DNA of 64,000 nt, from IMG/VR virus record IMGVR_UViG_3300012020_000005, positions 17,460 through 81,459 of that record; one strand, 5' to 3'. Position numbers and translations under genes: made by a program. Below the pieces are notes generated by a model. That model did no database searches. It worked only from the letters and a program-made list of their open reading frames with translations, and was not told the DNA's origin. This DNA comes from a virus (Duplodnaviria > Caudoviricetes). Below, piece by piece: positions 1 through 18,968 of this stretch (position 1 is the first letter of the stretch; the number at the start of each line of letters is the position of its first letter).

Positions 1-110
1 GTTTGGGATTAAGTAAACCAAAATATTCGAGTACTCACGAATAAAAACAGGTACAAACTAATTTTTAAATTAATCACAGTTACCCAAATGTTTTGTAGTA
101 GCTGTTATAA
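1..110 (+). repeat. attC-like site S0 (left part outside window)
   Basis: TTTGGG/CCCAAA arm and GTTATAAGTAGCTTT core at 104-118, complementary to AAAGTTACTTATAAC at 582-596. Confidence 0.7.
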
Positions 111-122
111 GTAGCTTTTATT

Positions 123-353
123 ATGCTTACAATTAAATTACTAAAAGAATTGATTAAAGACGTTCCAGATGATGCTATATTTTCTTCAATGCGTTTTGGA
201 AATAATAACGAAATGGATTTTTTTGTTATTAAAAGAGCGTTATTAGTTGAAGGTAGTAGAAATAAGTTTTTTGTGTTAAACCAAATGGGGACACATTGGG
301 GAGAAAAATGGGAAAAAGGAGAATATAAAATAATTAAAACAATAGAAAAATGA
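123..353 (+). CDS. Hypothetical protein, cassette 1
   Basis: 76-aa ORF just after the GTT core, overlapping the next ORF (ATGA). Confidence 0.7.
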   Translation: MLTIKLLKELIKDVPDDAIFSSMRFGNNNEMDFFVIKRALLVEGSRNKFFVLNQMGTHWGEKWEKGEYKIIKTIEK

Positions 354-571
354 CACAAACAATAGAATGTAAATGTGGTAAAACTTTTGCCGCATCAGGA
401 GTTCCTTATTGCTACACAAATGAGCAATGGCAAGAAGATTTAAGAGAATACGTAAAACAAGGTTGTACAGTTTCTTTAGTTGAAGATGATAAAGTACAAT
501 TTCAACAATGTACTTGCAATGAATTAGATGAACTTAAAGGCATTTTCGACACCGTTGTTCTTTTGGAGTAG
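350..571 (+). CDS. Small Cys-rich hypothetical protein, cassette 1
   Basis: 73-aa ORF with CKC and CTC motifs; stop lies just before site S1. Confidence 0.7.
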   Translation: MTQTIECKCGKTFAASGVPYCYTNEQWQEDLREYVKQGCTVSLVEDDKVQFQQCTCNELDELKGIFDTVVLLE

Positions 572-589
572 CGATTGTCCTAAAGTTAC

Positions 590-721
590 TTATAACGTTA
601 AGGTGCTTTGCAATATGGCGGTTTCAAGGCACTGCACCTTCAATTTAGAACTAATGTTTAATCAAGGCACTAACACTGAATTTTGCACTTCACCCGCCAT
701 ATTGCAAAGCACGTGTTATAG
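590..721 (+). repeat. attC-like site S1
   Basis: TTATAAC...GTTATAG with a perfect 19-bp inverted repeat, GTGCTTTGCAATATGGCGG (603-621) / CCGCCATATTGCAAAGCAC (694-712). Confidence 0.9.
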
Positions 722-739
722 CCAGTTAATTTTAATCAA

Positions 740-952
740 ATGTCAAAATTAAATTTGTATCAAAGAAGAAAACAAGAGTGTGGTTATGTTCATGGGATGT
801 ACAAACCCGATAAAGCTGATTTTTATTTAATCAAGCAAAATGTAGATGAGTATCTAATTGCTTATTTTGATGGGGAGTTTTGGGAAAGTAAAGTAGATAG
901 GCTTATCTGTTGGAGAGAAATACCTAAATCGGATATTTTAGCTCCGTTTTAA
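740..952 (+). CDS. Hypothetical protein, cassette 2
   Basis: 70-aa ORF filling the space between S1 and S2. Confidence 0.7.
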   Translation: MSKLNLYQRRKQECGYVHGMYKPDKADFYLIKQNVDEYLIAYFDGEFWESKVDRLICWREIPKSDILAPF

Positions 953-956
953 TTGG

Positions 957-1050
957 CTATAACGTGATGCGTATATGAGAAGTGGCACTTGTAGAATGTT
1001 GAAATTTAGCACAAATGTTTATGTGCCATTTCTTATATACGCTGTTAGCA
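957..1050 (+). repeat. attC-like site S2
   Basis: CTATAAC...GTTAGCA; arms GCGTATATGAGAAGTGGCAC / GTGCCATTTCTTATATACGC (two G:T pairs). Confidence 0.9.
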
Positions 1051-1141
1051 GTAGTACGGATTTAAACCACAAATGCTCAATCAAAGAACTGAACCTTTTT
1101 CTTTTCTTTTTTGTGCGGTTGGAAAATAAAAAATTAAAAAT

Positions 1142-1963
1142 ATGATTGAGATAAATAAAAATTACAACGAAAGCAATTTAGAAACAATGGAGAAAATGCC
1201 TGATTGCTTTGTGGACTTAACGGTAACAAGCCCACCTTATGATGGATTAAGAACATATAATGGTTATTCATTCCCTTTTGAGGATATTGCAAATGAGTTA
1301 TTTAGAATTACAAAAGATGGTGGTGTATTAGTTTGGGTTGTTGGTGATGCAACTGTGAAAGGTAGTGAAAGTGGAACTAGTTTTAAACAAGCATTGTTTT
1401 TTAAAGAGGTAGGTTTTAATTTGCACGATACAATGATGTATAGAAAGATAAACTACATACCATTAACACATAATAGATATGAGCAGGAGTTTGAGTATAT
1501 GTTTATTTTTAGCAAAGGAAAGCCTAAAACCTTTAATCCAATAATGGTTGAATGTAAAACAAAAGGAAGTAAAACAAAAGGCAGAACATTTTACCAAACA
1601 AATAGCCAAAATAAACCAACAGAAGCGCACAAAAACGATGCCGTAAAAGAATACAAACAAAAAGGAAATGTATGGGAAATACCTACTAATGCAGGCACAA
1701 AAGGACACCCCGCACAATTCCCTGAGCAATTAGCTAACGACCATATTATATCATGGTCTAATGAAGGTGATTTAGTTTACGACCCATTCATGGGAAGCGG
1801 AACAACAGCAAAAATGAGTATCTTAAATAACCGTAATTGGATTGGAAGCGAAATATCTTCTGAATACTGCGATATTATTGAAGAACGAATTAAAAAAGCG
1901 TGGGAAGAAAAAAGAAAAGAAAAAGATTTAACGCAGAAAACTCTATTCGTAGATGGAATGTAG
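1142..1963 (+). CDS. DNA amino-methyltransferase (N4-C/N6-A, beta class), cassette 3
   Basis: Catalytic TSPPY near the N-terminus, HPAQFP, and SAM-binding DPFMGSGTT near the C-terminus. Confidence 0.92.
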   Translation: MIEINKNYNESNLETMEKMPDCFVDLTVTSPPYDGLRTYNGYSFPFEDIANELFRITKDGGVLVWVVGDATVKGSESGTSFKQALFFKEVGFNLHDTMMYRKINYIPLTHNRYEQEFEYMFIFSKGKPKTFNPIMVECKTKGSKTKGRTFYQTNSQNKPTEAHKNDAVKEYKQKGNVWEIPTNAGTKGHPAQFPEQLANDHIISWSNEGDLVYDPFMGSGTTAKMSILNNRNWIGSEISSEYCDIIEERIKKAWEEKRKEKDLTQKTLFVDGM

Positions 1964-1969
1964 TATTAC

Positions 1970-2102
1970 TGCTAACGGCACTTGGCTTGTGGTCAGGTGC
2001 GGAATTTGAAAAACAAAACTTAAAATATAGAACGAATGATGATAGTAGAACAAATGTTGAATAACGCACCAACCCCGCTATTGCATATAGCCGATGTTAG
2101 TG
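1970..2102 (+). repeat. attC-like site S3 (imperfect arms; loop holds the start of the next ORF)
   Basis: TGCTAAC...GTTAGTG; GGTGCG/CGCACC and GGCT/AGCC pairings. Confidence 0.8.
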
Positions 2103-2827
2103 GCAGTGCTTTGTTCAATGCTGATTGTATGGATATTTTACCTCTTATTCCTGATAAATCGGTTCAACTCATTTTGGCAGATTTGCCTTATGGAACTACT
2201 AATTTGAAATGGGATAGTGTGTTAGACCTAAACAAGTTGTGGCAAGAATACGAAAGAATAATTACTGATAATGGTGCAATAGTTTTAACAGCATCTCAGC
2301 CATTTACAACGGTTTTAATAAACTCAAATCCTGCATTATTCAAATATGAATGGATATGGTTAAAAGATAAACCAAACAACTTTGCACTTGCTAATAAAAT
2401 GCCAATGAAATATCACGAAAACGTGTTGGTTTTTTATAAAAAACTGCCAAAATACAATAAGCAAATGGAAAAACGAGATGGTGGTGGAAAAAGGTATAAA
2501 TATGCAGTAAACTATGAAAACCAACAAAGCGAACATTTAACGCTAAAAAATGGTGCAAAGTTTTTTGATATGGAATTTAAAAACCCATCAAGTGTGCAAA
2601 AATTCTCAACAGGGAGAAGGCAGGATTTAAAACACCCAACACAAAAACCGTTGGAAATGATGAAGTATTTTATTGCGACATATTCAGATGAAAACGATTA
2701 TGTTCTTGACAATACAATGGGAGTAGGAACAACTTGCGTAGGAGCAAAGGAGTTGAACCGAAAGTTTATCGGGATTGAAAAAGAGGTAAAATATTATGAC
2801 TTAGCAGTTGCTCGTGTGTTCGGGTAG
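2036..2827 (+). CDS. DNA amino-methyltransferase (beta class), cassette 4
   Basis: ADC, DLPYG, HPTQKP and DNTMGVGTT motifs; first 20 codons lie inside site S3. Confidence 0.92.
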   Translation: MMIVEQMLNNAPTPLLHIADVSGSALFNADCMDILPLIPDKSVQLILADLPYGTTNLKWDSVLDLNKLWQEYERIITDNGAIVLTASQPFTTVLINSNPALFKYEWIWLKDKPNNFALANKMPMKYHENVLVFYKKLPKYNKQMEKRDGGGKRYKYAVNYENQQSEHLTLKNGAKFFDMEFKNPSSVQKFSTGRRQDLKHPTQKPLEMMKYFIATYSDENDYVLDNTMGVGTTCVGAKELNRKFIGIEKEVKYYDLAVARVFG

Positions 2828-2833
2828 CATTGC

Positions 2834-2932
2834 CACTAACGTTTTGCGGCTTTGTGTCTGTTTGCCCCTTGCACATAGCTTCAATTTACCACAAATATTG
2901 ATGGGGCAAATAGCACAAAACCGCTGTTATAA
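2834..2932 (+). repeat. attC-like site S4
   Basis: CACTAAC...GTTATAA; arms GCGGCTTTGTGTCTGTTTGCCCC / GGGGCAAATAGCACAAAACCGC with one unpaired base. Confidence 0.9.
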
Positions 2933-3002
2933 GCTGGCTGCGGTTAATTAAACGAAAATATAAATACGAAGAACAAAACAACTTTTAATAAATTTTTAAG
3001 CG

Positions 3003-3536
3003 ATGGGAATAGATAAAATAGGAAATAAGAAAAACTCATTTACGAGTAATAGTATTGAATACAGCACACCTTTGGCGATAGTTCAGCCATTAATAAACGA
3101 ATTTGGAATAACAAAAGATGTGTGTGCAAGCCAAACAAACCATAAGTTACCTGACTATTGGAATAAAGAAGATAATGCTTTGACAAAGGATTGGATTGGT
3201 AACTGCTGGATGAACCCGCCATTTGATAGAAACTTGGCAAAGTGGGTAAGAAAAGCATCTGATGAAGCCGATAAAAATGGAGGAACAAAGGTTTGTTTGA
3301 TACCTGTTAGGAGTAATACTAAATGGTGGGCTGAACTATCAATAAAATCGGAAATTCGTTTTATCAATGGCGAAGTAAATTTCAATGATGAACCAAGAGG
3401 TTTATGGATGGGAATGTGTATAATCATATTCGGAGAAAAAGCTAAAAAAGGAACATTCAGTATTATTGATTACAGGAGCGTTGGCAAAAATTTATTAAAA
3501 GTTGAAACGGAATTGTCAAACGAAGCAGGAACGTAG
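3003..3536 (+). CDS. Phage Dam-type N6-adenine DNA methyltransferase, cassette 5
   Basis: STP...DVCA...WMNPPF...LIPVRSNTKWW...IRFING layout of short phage adenine MTases. Confidence 0.85.
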   Translation: MGIDKIGNKKNSFTSNSIEYSTPLAIVQPLINEFGITKDVCASQTNHKLPDYWNKEDNALTKDWIGNCWMNPPFDRNLAKWVRKASDEADKNGGTKVCLIPVRSNTKWWAELSIKSEIRFINGEVNFNDEPRGLWMGMCIIIFGEKAKKGTFSIIDYRSVGKNLLKVETELSNEAGT

Positions 3537-3544
3537 CAGATTGC

Positions 3545-3624
3545 TTATAATAGGCGCGCGCTTGGCGTCAGGCTTGTGAGCTTGCTCCAAGCGTGGAGTT
3601 GGGCGAAGGGCGCGCCTATTGGGC
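3545..3624 (+). repeat. Variant attC-like site S5 (AAT...ATT core, GC-rich)
   Basis: AATAGGCGCGC / GCGCGCCTATT perfect inverted repeat; C:G core pair replaced by T:A. Confidence 0.75.
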
Positions 3625-3644
3625 AAAGGTGCTGTGCGCCTTTT

Positions 3645-3777
3645 GCCCAACGGTTTGGGGCTTTACGTAGTGGGGGATTATACCCACAAAAGCCCAATAG
3701 AATTACAAAAGTATAATAAAAGCACAAAAGTATGATAGAAGAACAAAAGCCCCCATTACGTAAAACCCCTGTTAGTA
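3645..3777 (+). repeat. attC-like site S6
   Basis: GCCCAAC...GTTAGTA; arms GGGGCTTTACGTAGTGGGGG / CCCCCATTACGTAAAACCCC. Confidence 0.9.
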
Positions 3778-4397
3778 GCAGTACGGGTAATAGTGATTGG
3801 TCTGGCAACAAAAATTCAATTTATAAAACGCTTGGGGCTTCCAACCATACGGATAAGGAACGCCAAAGTGAAGATTATTACGCAACTGAACCGAAAGCAG
3901 TTGAATTGCTTTTAGATTTAGAGGACTTTTCACAACTATATGTTTGGGAATGTGCCTGTGGTCAAGGTCATTTATCGGAAGCAATGATAAAAAAAGGAAT
4001 AAAAGTAAATTCAAGTGATTTAGTTTTAAGAGGATATGATAAGGCTTATATGTATGATTTTTTAAGCGAAGAAAACAAAGAGTGGAAAGGTCATATTATT
4101 ACAAATCCACCTTATAAATTCGCAAAGGAATTTGTTTATAAAGCATTATCAATAGTTCCAAATGGTTGTAAAGTTGCAATGTTTCTAAAAGTTCAATTTT
4201 TAGAAGGTAAGGCACGAAAGAAACTATTTGAAATATATCCACCTAAAACTGTTTACGTTTCAAGCAGTCGTTTATTATGTGCCAAAAATGGCGAATTTGA
4301 ACAAATGATTGCTGGTGGTGGTTCGGCTGTTGCTTACGCTTGGTTCGTTTGGGAAAAAGGATTTAATGGTCAAACAGAATTACAATGGTTCAATTAG
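3732..4397 (+). CDS. DNA amino-methyltransferase (NPPY type), cassette 7
   Basis: DYYATEP, WECACGQGHLS and IITNPPY motifs; first 13 codons lie inside site S6. Confidence 0.85.
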   Translation: MIEEQKPPLRKTPVSSSTGNSDWSGNKNSIYKTLGASNHTDKERQSEDYYATEPKAVELLLDLEDFSQLYVWECACGQGHLSEAMIKKGIKVNSSDLVLRGYDKAYMYDFLSEENKEWKGHIITNPPYKFAKEFVYKALSIVPNGCKVAMFLKVQFLEGKARKKLFEIYPPKTVYVSSSRLLCAKNGEFEQMIAGGGSAVAYAWFVWEKGFNGQTELQWFN

Positions 4398-4416
4398 CAA
4401 CGAATGGTAGTATTGC

Positions 4417-4547
4417 TACTAACGGACGGCGATTGTCGTGGTTGGGATAAAACAAAGACTGATAATTAAATTTAAAACTAAACTGAAAAATGAAAACAAA
4501 TGTAAAAGTTAAAGACAAAACCCAATCACTACAATCGTATGTTAGTG
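4417..4547 (+). repeat. attC-like site S7
   Basis: TACTAAC...GTTAGTG; arms CGATTGTCGTGGTTGGG / CCCAATCACTACAATCG. Confidence 0.9.
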
Positions 4548-4975
4548 TTTCGGTTACGGCTTCCGAGTTGCGAATAGGGAATTTAGTACACTTTCCTTTT
4601 ACGGCAGAAAATGTAAAAGTATTAGGAATTAATGCTCGTGAATATAAATCTGAAATAATTCATACAATCTCTTTTGAAAAAGGAACGAATTTATATTGTG
4701 AAAAGCCTTCTGTATTAAAACCTATCCCATTGTCGAATGAATGGTTAGAAAAATTAGGATTTTATATTGTTTCTGATAATGAATATAAAACAAGATTTGA
4801 TATTCTAAAAGAAGGCAGAATTGATTTTATAAGAGTAAAACACGAATTGTGTGATTCTGGAGTTCGGTTTGAAGGAGCTATGTTGAAAGGAATTGATTAT
4901 GTACACCAATTGCAAAACTTCTATTTTATAATTACTGGCTCGGAATTGCAGATTGGTTCTATAACTGAACACTAA
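4490..4975 (+). CDS. Phage hypothetical protein (ELRIGN-type), cassette 8
   Basis: 161-aa ORF; starts in the S7 loop and its stop codon overlaps the next TAAC core. Confidence 0.75.
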   Translation: MKTNVKVKDKTQSLQSYVSVSVTASELRIGNLVHFPFTAENVKVLGINAREYKSEIIHTISFEKGTNLYCEKPSVLKPIPLSNEWLEKLGFYIVSDNEYKTRFDILKEGRIDFIRVKHELCDSGVRFEGAMLKGIDYVHQLQNFYFIITGSELQIGSITEH

Positions 4976-5024
4976 CGTTTTGCAGCTATGCGCTCGTTTT
5001 AATGGCGCATAGGTGCTGTTATGC
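4970..5024 (+). repeat. attC-like site S8 (shortest, 55 bp)
   Basis: CACTAAC...GTTATGC; arms GCAGCTATGCGC / GCGCATAGGTGC. Confidence 0.9.
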
Positions 5025-5085
5025 GCTGGCACGGTTGATTAAACGATAAACTTAAATTGAAACACAAAACAAAATTTTTATTAAA

Positions 5086-5304
5086 ATGAGCGAGGGTAAA
5101 AAAGCAAAAGAACTAATTGATAAGCACCGTAAATGGGTTAATCAAATTGATGGCAGTTACTCCGAAACAGAGTATGCTAAAAAAGCTGCGCTTATTACCG
5201 TTAATGAAATTCTTGAAGTAGAAAGCAAGAAAATGATAAACGGTGATGTGAATGAATATGATTATTGGGAACAAGTAAAAAAGAAAATAAATGGCAGTAT
5301 TTGA
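5086..5304 (+). CDS. Hypothetical protein, cassette 9
   Basis: 72-aa ORF overlapping the next gene. Confidence 0.7.
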   Translation: MSEGKKAKELIDKHRKWVNQIDGSYSETEYAKKAALITVNEILEVESKKMINGDVNEYDYWEQVKKKINGSI

Positions 5305-5812
5305 TAAAGAAAAATTGTTTGATGCAGAGAAGGTAAACAAAAGCCTTGAAAGCATTGTGTGGGGAACACCAACAGAGTTGTTTGCCCCGATTGATAAAGA
5401 GTTCAGATTTACACTTGACGTATGTGCAATATCAGAAAACGCAAAGTGTGAAAGGTTTTTTACACCACAAGATGACGGACTTGCCCAAAGTTGGGAGAAT
5501 GAAGTTTGCTGGTGTAATCCACCATACGGGAAAGATGTAGTAAAGTGGTGTAAAAAAGCATTACAGGAAAGTAAAAGAGGGGCAACAACGGTATTGCTGA
5601 TACCTTGCAAAACGAACACAAATTGGTGGCACGACTTTGTAATACCTTATGCTGAAATTCGTTTTTTGCGTGGCAGAGTGGCTTTTGTTTACCCTAACGG
5701 AGAGCAGAGCAAACAAGCATTACCGTGGCCGCTTGCTTTTGTCATTTATCGTGGGTCGGAAGATTTTAATAAAAATTTTGAACCGCAAACTCTTTTTGGA
5801 AACGAAATGTAG
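5291..5812 (+). CDS. Phage Dam-type N6-adenine DNA methyltransferase, cassette 9
   Basis: WGTP...FTLDVCA...DDGL...WCNPPY...TNTNWW...IRFLRGR. Confidence 0.88.
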   Translation: MAVFDKEKLFDAEKVNKSLESIVWGTPTELFAPIDKEFRFTLDVCAISENAKCERFFTPQDDGLAQSWENEVCWCNPPYGKDVVKWCKKALQESKRGATTVLLIPCKTNTNWWHDFVIPYAEIRFLRGRVAFVYPNGEQSKQALPWPLAFVIYRGSEDFNKNFEPQTLFGNEM

Positions 5813-5819
5813 TGCTTGC

Positions 5820-5950
5820 GTATAACGGCTACGGCTATGTGCAGTAGCGGATTTGAAACACAAAACTTAAAATTATGATACGAAGATTATTTGAAAAACT
5901 AAGGCTGATTAAACCACGTCAGCCGCACTTGCCACAAACCAATGTTAGTG
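5820..5950 (+). repeat. attC-like site S9 (imperfect arms; related to S3)
   Basis: GTATAAC...GTTAGTG; loop shares GCGGA(A)TTTGAAA(A/C)ACAAAACTTAAAA with S3. Confidence 0.8.
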
Positions 5951-6129
5951 GCAGTTTTAAAGAGTGGTATTTAGAATTTCGCAACGAAATGGCAAAATCT
6001 TTTGGTGTTAATTATAGCATTTCTATTGCAAGTTGGACTTTTAGTGAAAATCATAAACACTATTACGATAGGGGACTTACACCAAAAGAGGCAGTATTGG
6101 AATATGCAGCGTCAAAAAATTGCCACTAA
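5875..6129 (+). CDS. Hypothetical protein, cassette 10
   Basis: 84-aa ORF starting in the S9 loop; stop overlaps the TAAC core. Confidence 0.65.
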   Translation: MIRRLFEKLRLIKPRQPHLPQTNVSGSFKEWYLEFRNEMAKSFGVNYSISIASWTFSENHKHYYDRGLTPKEAVLEYAASKNCH

Positions 6130-6260
6130 CGGTTAGTATATGGAAAGTAGGCGATAGGAAGGTATGAACCAATGGAAGCCTAAACGACACACTAAAACAA
6201 GGACAAGAGCCTTGAAATGTTACCAAGTGTTTAGCCTATTTTTTATATACATTGTTATGT
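6124..6260 (+). repeat. attC-like site S10
   Basis: CACTAAC...GTTATGT; arms GTATATGGAAAGTAGGC / GCCTATTTTTTATATAC (three G:T pairs). Confidence 0.88.
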
Positions 6261-6365
6261 ACTGTATAGTGACTTTTAAGCAATAAACTTTAATTAAAGA
6301 ACGAAACTAAGTAATAATATTTTGTGCGGTGGCAAATTGCTGAGGCACGAAGCAAAACAAAGACA

Positions 6366-7340
6366 ATGATTAAACTATACAAAGGCGATTGCCTTATTGA
6401 AAGCGATAAAATAGAAAGTGGTAGTGTTGATTTGATATTAACTGATTTGCCATTTGGTACTTTAAAAGGTGCTACATTGACAAGTTCAAAAACAAGAAAC
6501 AATGAGTATTCTTGGGATAATATTATTGATACGAATAAAATTTATAAGATAGCAAACAGAATACTTAGGAAAAACGGTAAAATGTTATTGTTTTGTCAAG
6601 AGCCATTTACAACTGAATTGATAAACAAAGCAATACCAAATATACCTTTAAGTTATAGAGCAATATGGGAAAAGAATGATTTTGCAAATTGTTTGTTTGC
6701 AAAAAAAGCAATGGTAAATTTTTACGAAGATATTCTAGTTTTTAGCAAAAATGAAGATACAGAAAAAGCACACCCTTTGAGAGAGTATTTTTATACTGAA
6801 TACGAAAAAACAGGTTTGACCTATAAAGAAATAAACAGAGATTATTTAGAAACCACTTTTGAAGGTGGCGGTGGAATGGCTTACAATATGCTTTGTAGAA
6901 CACGTTTGTATTTTAGTATGCCAACAGAAGAGGCTTATAGTAGATTGCAGAAAACTGGATATTTTAAAAAGCCTTATGAAGAGCTTAAAATAGAAGACGA
7001 AGCGTTTAAAAACAAAATGAAAAGCACATTTAACCTTTGGGAAGGTAAAAAATACAAAAGTAATATACTTAAATACAAAAAAGATTATGATGGCTACCAC
7101 CCAACGCAAAAGCCAGTTTTATTGTTAGAGGACTTAATAAAAACTTTTAGCAACGAAAATGATTTAGTAGTTGATTTAACTATGGGTTCTGGTAGCACTA
7201 TGGTAGCCTGCAAAAACACCAATAGAAACGGAATAGGTATTGAAATGAATGACGAGTATTTTAGTATTGCTGAGAAAAGGGTGGAAAAAAATATTATTAC
7301 GACTGGTGAGCAAACAAGTATATTAGACGAACTGAACTAA
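6366..7340 (+). CDS. DNA amino-methyltransferase (beta class) with internal insertion, cassette 11
   Basis: GDC, DLPFG, HPTQKP and DLTMGSGST motifs; likely start ATG 6366 (MIKLYKGDCL), although the ORF track begins at 6324. Confidence 0.9.
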   Translation: MIKLYKGDCLIESDKIESGSVDLILTDLPFGTLKGATLTSSKTRNNEYSWDNIIDTNKIYKIANRILRKNGKMLLFCQEPFTTELINKAIPNIPLSYRAIWEKNDFANCLFAKKAMVNFYEDILVFSKNEDTEKAHPLREYFYTEYEKTGLTYKEINRDYLETTFEGGGGMAYNMLCRTRLYFSMPTEEAYSRLQKTGYFKKPYEELKIEDEAFKNKMKSTFNLWEGKKYKSNILKYKKDYDGYHPTQKPVLLLEDLIKTFSNENDLVVDLTMGSGSTMVACKNTNRNGIGIEMNDEYFSIAEKRVEKNIITTGEQTSILDELN

Positions 7341-7341
7341 G

Positions 7342-7357
7342 CTATATTGTACATAAC
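7342..7357 (+). repeat. Terminal half-site of the cassette array (no hairpin follows)
   Basis: CTATATTGTACATAAC, complementary to GTTATGTACTGTATAG at 6254-6269. Confidence 0.75.
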
Positions 7358-7407
7358 TATTTACTAAGCGTTACTAAAGAGGTAAAACACTAATAAAATT
7401 AAGACTT

Positions 7408-7668
7408 ATGATTACCACAATAGAATTTAAATATGGTTTTATTTATAAAGGAGTTAGGTATGCTTGGAAAAATAAAAAATTATACAGACTTCCTTTTGAA
7501 AGAAATCTAAGAACTTACAGATTAAAAGAAATCCCTCAATATGTTTTTAAATCAACGCAAGTTTATAATGTGCAAAGAAGTAAGTTAACTATAAATAAAT
7601 TAAAATTTTTAACAGAAAAAGTTGATTGGAATATTCAAACAATAGTAGAGGATGAATGTCCTTTTTAA
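7408..7668 (+). CDS. Hypothetical protein
   Basis: 86-aa basic ORF with AT-rich leader. Confidence 0.65.
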   Translation: MITTIEFKYGFIYKGVRYAWKNKKLYRLPFERNLRTYRLKEIPQYVFKSTQVYNVQRSKLTINKLKFLTEKVDWNIQTIVEDECPF

Positions 7669-7680
7669 TAATGTAAATGT

Positions 7681-7860
7681 ATGATATATTGTAAAGAATG
7701 TAGACGTAAGGCAGTTATGGATGCTTTTAGTAATGGTATTTGTGGAGTGTGTAGTGAAGATATTTCTTGTAGCCATAGTCCTTGTAATTTAGTTTGTTAC
7801 AATTGCGCGGAGGATTTTAATTTATGTGAATCATGTGGTAAAAGTTTAAAAGATGAATAG
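7681..7860 (+). CDS. Small Cys-rich (zinc-finger-like) protein, not in ORF track
   Basis: MIYCKEC...CGVC...CYNC...CESC; 59 aa translated by hand. Confidence 0.65.
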   Translation: MIYCKECRRKAVMDAFSNGICGVCSEDISCSHSPCNLVCYNCAEDFNLCESCGKSLKDE

Positions 7861-8047
7861 AAAAGAAGGTCTTTATAAAGTTAAATTTAACGGACAATGG
7901 AGAATAGCAAAATGGACAGTAAATCCTGATATGGATTCCTCTTGGTGTTGTTGGTGGATAGTGGGAGAAAAACCTAAAGCATGGGGATGGTCTGATAAAG
8001 ATTTTGAAGATATTCTTGAATCTTCTTGGTCTCCTAATTCTAAATAA
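7853..8047 (+). CDS. Hypothetical protein
   Basis: 64-aa Trp-rich ORF overlapping the previous gene. Confidence 0.55.
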   Translation: MNRKEGLYKVKFNGQWRIAKWTVNPDMDSSWCCWWIVGEKPKAWGWSDKDFEDILESSWSPNSK

Positions 8048-17186: not shown

Positions 17187-18968
17187 TTATCTCTATTTTA
17201 GGTTCTTTATCTTCTAAATGTGTTATTGTGTAACTTTCTCCTACTTTAATTTTATTTAAGATGTATACACCTGTTTCTATGTTTTTTATTTCAGGTTGTA
17301 TTTTGTCTGTTATTGTTTTATAATCTTCTTTCCCAGCCCACCAAAAACGAATAAATTGACGGGAAGACTCAAAATGACACCAATCATTACCATTGAATAA
17401 TTCATTTTCTGTCTCTTGTAATTTTCCTAATCCATCCCAATCTACTAAGGTTTTGTAATATCCTTTTCTTAGGGGTTTTGATATGCTGTTATTTATCCAC
17501 ATTTTCTATAAATTTTATGTTACTTGGTAAAACACTTTCTATTGTTCCATCAGATAATTCTACTAAAGCTACTGTAAAGTTTCCCGCTCCTGTTTCAAAT
17601 TCTTCATAAGAGCAACCCCATATATGAAATAACCCTTCATGTATAAAATCTTTTTCCCAACAATTAGTTCCCTCTTTTACTCTTTTGAAAGCTCCCTCAC
17701 TAATATATTCTGCTATAATCCATTTTTTAAATAATACTTTTCTCATTTCTTTTTACTTTTATACCTAAATTTTGCTTTACATTCTTCATTAATACACTGT
17801 ACTACTTTTGAGCCTTTTCTTGTTTGTTTTAAGTTTGATTGGCATTTTGAGCAGTTATCTGTTTTTAGCCTTTCTTGTATCTGTTTATCTATGTTTTCAT
17901 TCTTTTTTCGGCGAACTTCAGCTTTATATTGCTTTTCTTCCTCTGTTGGTGGTATAAGAATTTTAGCTAATCTCTTATACTCTTTACTTATCCAAGGGTC
18001 TTCATAATGATTACCTAAAGATATTTCATCTCCTAATTTTATAAATAAATCCCATTCACGTTGATTGTCTCTCATAACCATTCTAAATTTATAGGTTCAT
18101 AAAATTTATTATCTCTATCAACTTCTTTTTCAAAACTTTTCTTTCCATACCAATAAGCATAAACTTTTTTCTGTTCTTTTTCTAGTTTTTTATACGCGGA
18201 ATTTGCTTCTTTTTGAGTTTTAAAAATTAATGTTTCTTCTCCTCCATACCAACAGATTCCAATAGGATTGAAACCAGCTTCTCTTACTGTTCGTAATGTT
18301 ATGGAGGTTGAAGTTCCATATTTATATCCATTATCTTCTAACCACTCATTATAAGCTATATTTTCTTGTAACTCCTTATTCCATTTTTCTTTTTGTTCAG
18401 GAGTTATTCTATCTAATATTTCCTGTATTATTTTACTCTTCATTAGTGTAAATATTTTATTATAATATCTGAGTTATCTATTAGATTTGAATTATATAAA
18501 TCATAGGCAGATACACCTACATTGTCTTTGCAGTTCATGTACCATAAATCATTTTCTAAATAGAAATCACATTCTTTGTATCTATCATAAGCTATTAGAT
18601 TTTTCTTGGCTTTATTTGATTGTTTTTTGGTGTGTTTCATCTCTTAAAATATAATCTGTTGGTTTTAAATCTAATACTCTTGCTAATGTTTGAAAACTGT
18701 CAGAGGCTGAATCGTAATTATGTTCTTCTAATTCGTAATCTAAATACCCTCCAAATTCATCTTTTTCTACTATTTCTGCGGAAAACTTTTCCGCATAAGG
18801 TGAATTAATACACTCATCTGCGATTCCCAAAAGATTGTAATTATTATGTGGTAGTTTTATTCTTTTACCTTCGTCCTGGTCAAAACCTTTTATATATCCA
18901 TCTGAGCAATCTCCTATTACATAGTCTATGTCGTTTTCTACAAATATATAATTATTATGTTTTTTCAT
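17176..18968 (-). other. Cluster of small phage hypothetical genes (17176-17502, 17489-17746, 17743-18081, 18072-18443, 18443-18640, 18612-18968)
   Basis: Overlapping - strand ORFs converging on the + strand block. Confidence 0.65.

Follow-up and report, generated by a model that had tools for sequence, protein, structure and literature searches.

Analysis of a 64,000-nt DNA segment of a Caudoviricetes virus (IMG/VR record IMGVR_UViG_3300012020_000005, positions 17,460–81,459; this whole segment is referred to as the window) revealed a run of short plus-strand genes, located at approximately −700 to 6300 in window coordinates, which are separated by imperfect hairpins (Table 1). The viral contig (G+C content 30%) is 81 kb long, and the window makes up its right-hand 64 kb. 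Its minus strand carries structural genes, and its plus strand an early/replication module encoding an exonuclease, a PD-(D/E)XK nuclease, a DnaB-type helicase and a family A polymerase. Six DNA methyltransferases are encoded within the run: three of family PF01555 (at 1142, 2036 and 6324), two Dam enzymes of PF05869 (3003 and 5291) and a protein with an NPPY motif (3732). The features described below indicate that this locus, which lies in the early/replication region, is probably an integron-like cassette array of a Bacteroidota (Flavobacterium-type) phage, in which some of the hairpins would also encode the N-termini of the proteins that follow them, translation being initiated inside the hairpin loop.

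Organization of the probable cassette array

At least ten hairpin sites were detected between −700 and 6300, with duplex energies ranging from −22 to −40 kcal/mol. They begin with ..(C/T)TAAC, placed right behind a stop codon, and close with GTTA... Their general build is that of attC sites, i.e. imperfect inverted repeats with a left ..AAC and a right GTT.. core around a variable loop. The cognate arms are strong at 3649/3771 (duplex −35.6 kcal/mol) and 4421/4541 (−26.8 kcal/mol), and hairpins 2838/2926 and 4974/5018 are compact, with no ATG in the loop. Hairpins 1974/2096 and 5824/5944 fold poorly (z −0.14), because their left arms have been swapped between the two sites. An Rfam scan of positions 1–8000 returned only chance miRNA-like matches on palindromes.

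Each gene of the array is bounded by its own 12-bp inverted repeat (5′ GTTA-N6-RGT ... AYT-N6′-TAAC 3′): each 12-nt stretch that begins with the GTT of a site recurs, inverted, in the 12 nt that end with the AAC of the following site. When the 8 nt past GTTA are compared with the reverse-complemented left box of the following site, mostly 7 of 8 positions agree (mean 5.5), as opposed to 2.8 of 8 for the left box of the same site. A match at 10 or more of the 12 positions was found for 132 right/left box pairs, and in 124 of these 132 cassettes position 11 is a G opposite a T. Complementary core boxes are thus present at both cassette ends, as in integrons, and since every gene has a terminal inverted repeat of its own, the array bears the integron signature of crossover inside the core and of a circular intermediate. 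The integron core consensus (RYYYAAC/GTTRRRY) is not followed: in the cores GTTAGTG, GTTATAA, GTTAGCA and GTTACCT only GTT(A), together with (T)AAC, is constant. The left arm has a 4–5-nt bulge directly past AAC (0–1 nt on the right arm) as well as single-base bulges, and the loop is variable. In canonical attC sites the choice of strand is set by unpaired features, namely extrahelical bases, an unpaired central spacer and a variable terminal structure (PMC5027507); relative to the main junction, the geometry found here differs from the canonical one.

For comparative analysis, 328 unique sites were collected from approximately 100 viral contigs; 158 of them contain a loop-initiated open reading frame (ORF) that continues into a gene. 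The first two hairpin detectors were too noisy and were replaced by a tighter version. In an exact 14-mer search of viral contigs, approximately 100 of the 119 matches for the core were due to chance, and only some 21 proved to be genuine sites.

When contigs are compared, their homology ends precisely at AAC and GTT, with only 4–6 bases in common, and metagenome contigs from river, lake and sludge part from the window at 2829–2841, 2095 and 5946. Among the homology segments that span a whole hairpin body, 169 comprise the body only (from AAC to the GTT box), 120 run from AAC into the downstream gene, 5 from the upstream gene to GTT, and 18 extend to both sides. The body is therefore linked mostly to the downstream ORF (120 vs 5 segments) and not, as in attC, to the upstream one. 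Accordingly, one of the bodies, designated Y, is combined with a single gene family, and the boxes found upstream of it are of at least 25 kinds. In four public runs (river, lake and sludge metagenomes) the contig depth over positions 1900–6200 is 10–100 times higher on hairpins than on genes, so the hairpin modules must occur in many more genomes than any single cassette gene.

The poorly folding sites are reciprocal hybrids. Site 1974/2096 combines the left arm of a body designated X with the right arm of Y, and site 5824/5944 the left arm of Y with the right arm of X; the cognate forms were identified elsewhere, X in contig L033 and Y in L011, L016 and L023. Metagenome contigs carry the joints 2003→5851 and 5873→2039, and therefore the 3.8-kb block 2004–5850 sits inside what in other genomes is a single X hairpin. 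By sequence comparison, this six-gene block looks like an insertion or the product of a reciprocal exchange.

Leaders probably initiated in the hairpin loops

Four ORFs of the window start in A-rich hairpin loops and cross the right arm and the core. Their coordinates, codon numbers and peptides had been given in an initial account of this DNA made without database searches (the sequence-only reading), and all of them were confirmed. GTT at 2096–2098 is codon 21 of the ORF starting at ATG 2036 (..LHIAD-VSGS), GTT 3771 is codon 14 from ATG 3732 (..RKTP-VSSS), GTT 4541 is codon 18 from ATG 4490 (..LQSY-VSVS) and GTT 5944 is codon 24 from ATG 5875 (..PQTN-VSGS). A fifth case, approximately 200–370 nt upstream of the window start, also has a loop ATG (..QTD-VICC), and GTT is read as Val in all five. 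The A-rich tract noted ahead of the loop ATGs is likewise present: the 25 nt upstream contain 52–64% A, compared to a mean of 50% for bona fide genes of the phage and 36% for all of its ATGs.

One case is the methyltransferase encoded by ORF 2036–2827, which is a member of PF01555 (E 1.8e-27; 97.2 bits against a cut-off of 26.7; residues 43–258) and carries a DPPY-type motif (..ILADLPYGTT..). Between the core and the motif LFNADC there is not a single in-frame ATG, and the dependence of the gene on the loop ATG, postulated on these grounds by the sequence-only reading, is supported by comparison with its relatives. The alignment with homologs from unrelated phages begins only at residue 24–27, and the homolog of Escherichia coli phage mEp515 starts 5 codons ahead of this point. 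Within a set of 120 close homologs, the 2036-type enzyme was found behind four leaders (..LLHIADVSGS, ..NKALHIADVSGS, ..PPLQQCSVSGS and ..NYCQCNVSGS), the joint between leader and enzyme always being VSGS|ALF... The enzyme also occurs with short N-termini of its own (P0009, P0103). One in-frame TTG is present between the core and LFNADC of the 2036 gene, and its relatives have TTA at this place (e.g. L048). The ATG inside ATGTTAG was considered as the true start of the gene and rejected; its frame closes after 36 codons and differs from the methyltransferase frame. In many cassette genes none of ATG, GTG and TTG occurs ahead of the conserved motifs (e.g. ..VSGS-TFVNADCFDVFP).

The protein family of gene 3732 provides further cases. 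Approximately 100 of 120 homologs begin with M(x)KDWTGN, i.e. with a Met of their own. In the cassette forms this native Met is gone, and at least 8 other leader types, with a V-x-x-S ending, are found at the same junction. One such leader form (P0141) maps to a hairpin within an 8-hairpin array (L206), and an own-start form (P0154) is located in a phage recombination module without hairpins (L207). Relatives outside such arrays have their own Met within approximately 5 residues of the junction.

Searches with the left arm only, which are independent of the right core and of the downstream gene, gave the same picture. Some 20 unrelated downstream ORFs, which extend 52–729 codons past the core, carry a leader of family Q (..NPQ(S/F)CQTDV...), always in the frame of the leader and with the other two frames closed, and family Y was found ahead of a 2036-type enzyme in approximately 40 contigs. 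Leader ORFs are present in 132 of 202 long-loop sites and in 2 of 59 short-loop sites. Judged from these patterns the loop starts are very probably real, and we infer from the comparison of related genes that the loop ATGs are used. The proposal that the hairpin serves both as initiation region and as N-terminal coding sequence has thus gained strong comparative evidence, and it would explain a recurrent oddity of annotation, namely unrelated phage proteins with common ..VSGS-type N-termini.

The generalization that the core GTT is read as Val did not hold. The agreement of the four ORFs has a probability of approximately 1/16 (TAG closes one frame in GTTAG cores) and is weak alone. After collapse to distinct downstream proteins (n = 116), 70 leader-fed genes read the core as GTT (Val), 37 as xxG TTA and 9 as xGT TAY. 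When the two searched leader families and the one searched core motif are subtracted, the ratio of approximately 47:37:9 is not significantly different from the expectation for open frames. A random core frame in a larger sample had been named in advance as the result that would speak against a Val rule, and the outcome is close to it. A large second leader class (..FAKP(V/L)L..) reads the core as Leu. On the sequences compared, the phase at GTT is fixed for each leader family and not for the system as a whole, the window holding families of GTT phase.

The picture of a gene borrowing its N-terminus from the hairpin ahead, which the sequence-only reading implied, stands in part. Exchange at the GTT box evidently also happens, with only in-phase products seen, but for the most part hairpin and downstream gene are inherited together. 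As the hairpin travels with the gene behind it, the start codon is usually built into the unit and not borrowed.

Proposed mechanism, alternatives and known systems

These data are probably best explained by the following model. A cassette consists of a gene, often for an orphan DNA methyltransferase, lying within its own 12-bp inverted repeat, and imperfect hairpin bodies join the cassettes. Compact hairpins (40–90 nt core to core) stand ahead of genes with their own start, and the loops of long hairpins (approximately 120 nt) hold a putative A-rich initiation region devoid of a Shine-Dalgarno sequence, together with an ATG. Translation from this ATG would proceed across the right arm and the GTT box into a gene body without a start of its own, the recombination site doubling as an expression adaptor that encodes the first 14–27 residues. 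As a rule the hairpin stays with the gene downstream of it, opposite to the order in canonical integron cassettes, and with junctions placed exactly at AAC (left) and GTT (right) leaders and genes are sometimes re-assorted, in in-phase combinations only. We infer that folded single strands are recombined site-specifically by some recombinase and that the junctions are formed in this way. More tentatively, and with considerable reserve, we suggest that Bacteroidota phages may carry a distinct integron relative of reversed polarity, in which the folded site at the 5′ end is a portable expression adaptor, start-less gene fragments are captured and expressed at once, and exchange is catalysed not by a classical IntI but by a host factor or by a phage enzyme so far not recognised as such, whose substrate may be the sense strand.

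The pattern of stem mismatches is relevant to the folded form. In 224 unique hairpin bodies, left G:right T mismatches (21%) outnumber left C:right A (12%), and T:G (4.5%) outnumber A:C (0.6%), the right arm being shifted to A/T. This wobble bias, together with the G:T at box position 11, may be a sign that folding takes place in the sense strand or in the mRNA.

Several results weigh against an integron-like system with hairpin-encoded N-termini. The locus sample was enriched for two leader families, and some of the counts are inflated. Unlike in attC, the body is linked to the downstream gene (reversed polarity), GTTRRRY is replaced by 12-bp boxes that have a variable N6 and, at position 11, an almost constant G:T, and the 4–5-nt bulge is confined to the left arm. 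In the two hybrid sites, the crossover lies at the border of left arm and loop, within 8 shared bases of the conserved leader, and looks like the result of homologous and not of site-specific exchange. RNA-library contigs (run X19) covering leaders and genes show neither transcript ends or starts nor translation, and the library may hold DNA. Finally, the tyrosine recombinase profile PF00589 matched nothing in the 81-kb contig, nor in a 362-kb phage that is complete and has an array of this kind, and a search of 5 Bacteroidota genomes with these hairpins revealed no IntI-class integrase (TIGR02249 remained below the cut-off).

None of the recombinase candidates obtained in the PF00589 and TIGR02249 searches was convincing, and the combination of an adjacent IntI integrase with attI, which defines a complete integron, was not found. 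One related array is preceded by a gene for a 331-aa tyrosine-recombinase-like protein (L119:6496–7491, corresponding to L123:706–1701; PF13102, E 1.5e-8; PF00589 weak), which lies 600 nt upstream of the first hairpin in the same orientation; no homolog of this protein was detected in the other loci or in the genome containing the window.

In a canonical integron the hairpin would belong to the upstream cassette and would lend start and leader to whatever lands behind it. Such an arrangement agrees with the finding of one gene behind different bodies and of one body ahead of approximately 20 genes, with the many homology segments that stop exactly at the GTT box (the 169 body-only segments; the loose ends at 2095 and 5946) and with the GTT frame at all five array sites. 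Yet it needs a universal GTT = Val phase, which is incompatible with the 70:37:9 split of frames, and it leaves unexplained both the downstream linkage of the bodies (120 vs 5) and the occurrence of body Y ahead of the 2036-type methyltransferase in some 40 contigs behind at least 25 upstream boxes. We regard it as unlikely. The absence of a detectable recombinase, in a phage that has nucleases and replication proteins but no integrase, could instead mean that the hairpins are mainly RNA-level or expression elements (acting in mRNA processing, stability or presentation of the start in a loop), and that shuffling is ordinary homologous recombination in conserved intergenic linkers; the sense-strand wobble bias and the crossover of the two hybrid sites in 8 shared bases of the conserved loop leader would fit with this. 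However, the 12-bp repeats are cassette-specific, co-vary and lie approximately 1 kb apart, so that they would meet only in an excised circle, the breakpoints fall exactly at AAC/GTT with only 4–6 shared bases, and IntI1 has recombined a site of the related P12002L array (PMC9892861). A mainly RNA-level role of this kind is quite unlikely.

It is very unlikely that translation of the loop ORFs yields no fusions, with the genuine starts at non-ATG codons past the core or with leaders that act only by coupling, like ORF-11 of class 1 integrons. The single in-frame TTG past the core of the 2036 gene might be taken as such a start, and some loop ORFs do stop soon past the core ahead of own-start genes (6164–6286; L169). 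Against this, the TTG lacks conservation, in many cassette genes the conserved motifs are preceded by none of ATG, GTG and TTG, the cassette forms of the 3732 family lack the native Met, and approximately 116 distinct genes hold an open frame from the loop ATG through the arm into the gene.

If the integron-like array with hairpin-encoded N-termini is accepted, a single recombination site would be under three constraints, i.e. folding, recombination and coding. It suggests how promoterless, start-less cassette genes may be expressed without a Shine-Dalgarno sequence, which suits translation in Bacteroidota, and points to how these phages may trade anti-restriction methyltransferases. In cultured relatives, methyltransferase content tracks the plating efficiency on alternative hosts (PMC7077304). 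Because the polarity is reversed and an integrase is missing, cultured Flavobacterium phages would allow a direct test of how integron-like systems outside Proteobacteria originated and of their enzymology.

Integrase-less attC clusters in phages, and leader ORFs across recombination sites in attI1, are already known. Virulent phages carry attC clusters lacking an integrase (CALINs), among them Polaribacter phage P12002L with methyltransferase cassettes (Qi et al. 2023, PMC9892861). One site of this phage, P12002L_attC2, was recombined with attI1 by IntI1 (PMC9892861), and sites of the same grammar as those of the window were detected in the P12002L array. The array shares with phage CALINs and attC sites the single-gene units parted by imperfect hairpins, the conserved AAC...GTT cores and the pairing of the outer boxes of a unit with each other and not with those of array neighbours, and with the CALINs of P12002L also the orphan methyltransferase cargo and the lack of a nearby integrase. 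Unlike in attC, half of the sites hold a start codon and a leader fused in frame to the gene.

Leader ORFs have been described as ORF-11 and ORF-18 of attI1 in class 1 integrons, and attC sites contain short ORFs as well; initiation signals are missing from about 20% of integron cassettes, which are served by a leader ORF in the recombination site (reviewed in PMC8876359). The leaders of the array resemble ORF-11 and ORF-18 in being small ORFs with their own initiation region, placed in a recombination site and read across the crossover point. Unlike these leaders, ORF-11 ends at the core TAG and acts by translational coupling, whereas here the usual outcome is an in-frame fusion that forms the protein N-terminus: the four ORFs of the window run 61–243 codons past the core as the protein itself. 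ORF-11 is also confined to attI, while leader ORFs are present in most long hairpins of the array.

A further parallel is offered by aac(6′)-Ib (aacA4) cassettes, which have variable N-termini derived from upstream sequence (PMC8876359). As in these cassettes, a start-less gene gains different N-termini by fusion at the cassette boundary; the aac(6′)-Ib cases are sporadic fusions to any upstream sequence, whereas here dedicated conserved leader modules are located inside the recombination site. A literature search found no paper on dedicated leaders in most long hairpins or on a leader fused in frame as the protein N-terminus, nor one on cassette genes with the native start lost or on a reversed linkage of hairpin and gene.

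Individual features and distribution

The hairpins and genes of the array within the window are summarized in Table 1.

Table 1. Hairpins and genes of the cassette array in the window.
Feature	Position	Strand	Characteristics
Leader-bearing junction hairpin	1965–2107	+	Left box ATTACTGCTAAC (1965–1976), body 1977–2095, A-rich loop, ATG 2036/2039, right box GTTAGTGGCAGT (2096–2107)
N6/N4 DNA methyltransferase, 263 aa	2036–2827	+	Residues 1–24, predicted hairpin leader; enzyme proper from approximately residue 25
Compact junction hairpin	2829–2937	+	Loop without start codon; left box ATTGCCACTAAC (inverted repeat of 2096–2107), right box GTTATAAGCTGG; z −4.28
Dam-type methyltransferase	3003–3536	+	Own leader and own ATG, behind compact hairpin 2829–2937
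Leader-bearing junction hairpin	3640–3782	+	Left box ..GCCCAAC, 15-bp stem, 70-nt loop with ATG 3732, right box GTTAGTAGCAGT
Protein with NPPY motif, probable methyltransferase, 221 aa	3732–4397	+	No Pfam match; residues 1–17, predicted hairpin leader
Leader-bearing junction hairpin	4412–4552	+	Left box ATTGCTACTAAC (inverted repeat of 3771–3782), loop ATG 4490, right box GTTAGTGTTTCG
Protein, function unassigned, 161 aa	4490–4975	+	First 21 residues predicted from loop, right arm and core
Compact junction hairpin	4965–5029	+	44 nt core to core, without start codon; z −3.43
Own-start genes	5086–5304; 5291–5812 (Dam-type methyltransferase)	+	Behind compact hairpin 4965–5029
Leader-bearing junction hairpin	5815–5955	+	Loop ATG 5875, right box GTTAGTGGCAGT; left arm Y, right arm X
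Protein, function unassigned, 84 aa	5875–6129	+	Residues 1–27, predicted hairpin leader; same gene with homologous leader in L033
Junction hairpin	6119–6286	+	Loop ORF 6164–6286 (GTT frame) ends 10 codons past core
Methyltransferase with own start	6324–7340	+	Behind hairpin 6119–6286

Two sites are exceptional in their likeness to ORF-11. The loop ORF 6164–6286 and that of a site in L169 start in the loop, are read in the GTT frame and stop 6–10 codons past the core, the next gene having its own start. An ORF of 56 codons (975–1145) passes through the core of hairpin 961/1044 in the GTT frame, and its terminal ATGA overlaps the start of the 1142 methyltransferase gene. It was not counted as a coupling leader for this gene, as its ATG sits in the left arm without an A-rich context. 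Region 1043–1145 shows 90% identity to Flavobacterium phage mymlan6-1 (gp008 in the annotation of that phage), and the compact hairpin 2829–2937 shows 89% identity to Flavobacterium phages Muminvirus/Lillamyvirus. In the cultured relatives mymlan6-1 and lillamy9-1, the methyltransferases annotated as gp014 and gp009, respectively, likewise have their starts in hairpin loops of this type, with predicted leader peptides ..VSRS and ..VIAS.

The region 3′ of gene 3003–3536 (3537–3651) begins with a degenerate left box ATTGCTTATAAT, in which AAT replaces AAC, followed by a very stable GC-rich hairpin (z −6.1) and by a 33-nt unit resembling an empty cassette, with a right box and a left box 9 nt apart. 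Many metagenome contigs meet the window at 3502–3505 with differing upstream sequence.

A scan of bacterial genomes with the Q left arm gave mostly chance matches in GC-rich genomes; the arm was present in 6 Bacteroidota contigs, 5 of which contain detectable sites. Hairpins of the same family were identified in L228, L244, L255, L257 and L275, contigs filed under Flavobacterium ranwuense, Raineya orbicola and Saprospiraceae, Chitinophaga and unclassified Bacteroidetes metagenome-assembled genomes. The sixth contig, L227 of Flavobacterium croceum, carries the Q left arm with no site detected. Members of this element family thus appear to occur in several classes of Bacteroidota, where they probably belong to prophages or to phages that were co-assembled. 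In one related array (L206:1–2460), a tandem duplication of three cassettes was observed, sites 23, 379 and 704 being repeated at 1655, 2011 and 2336.

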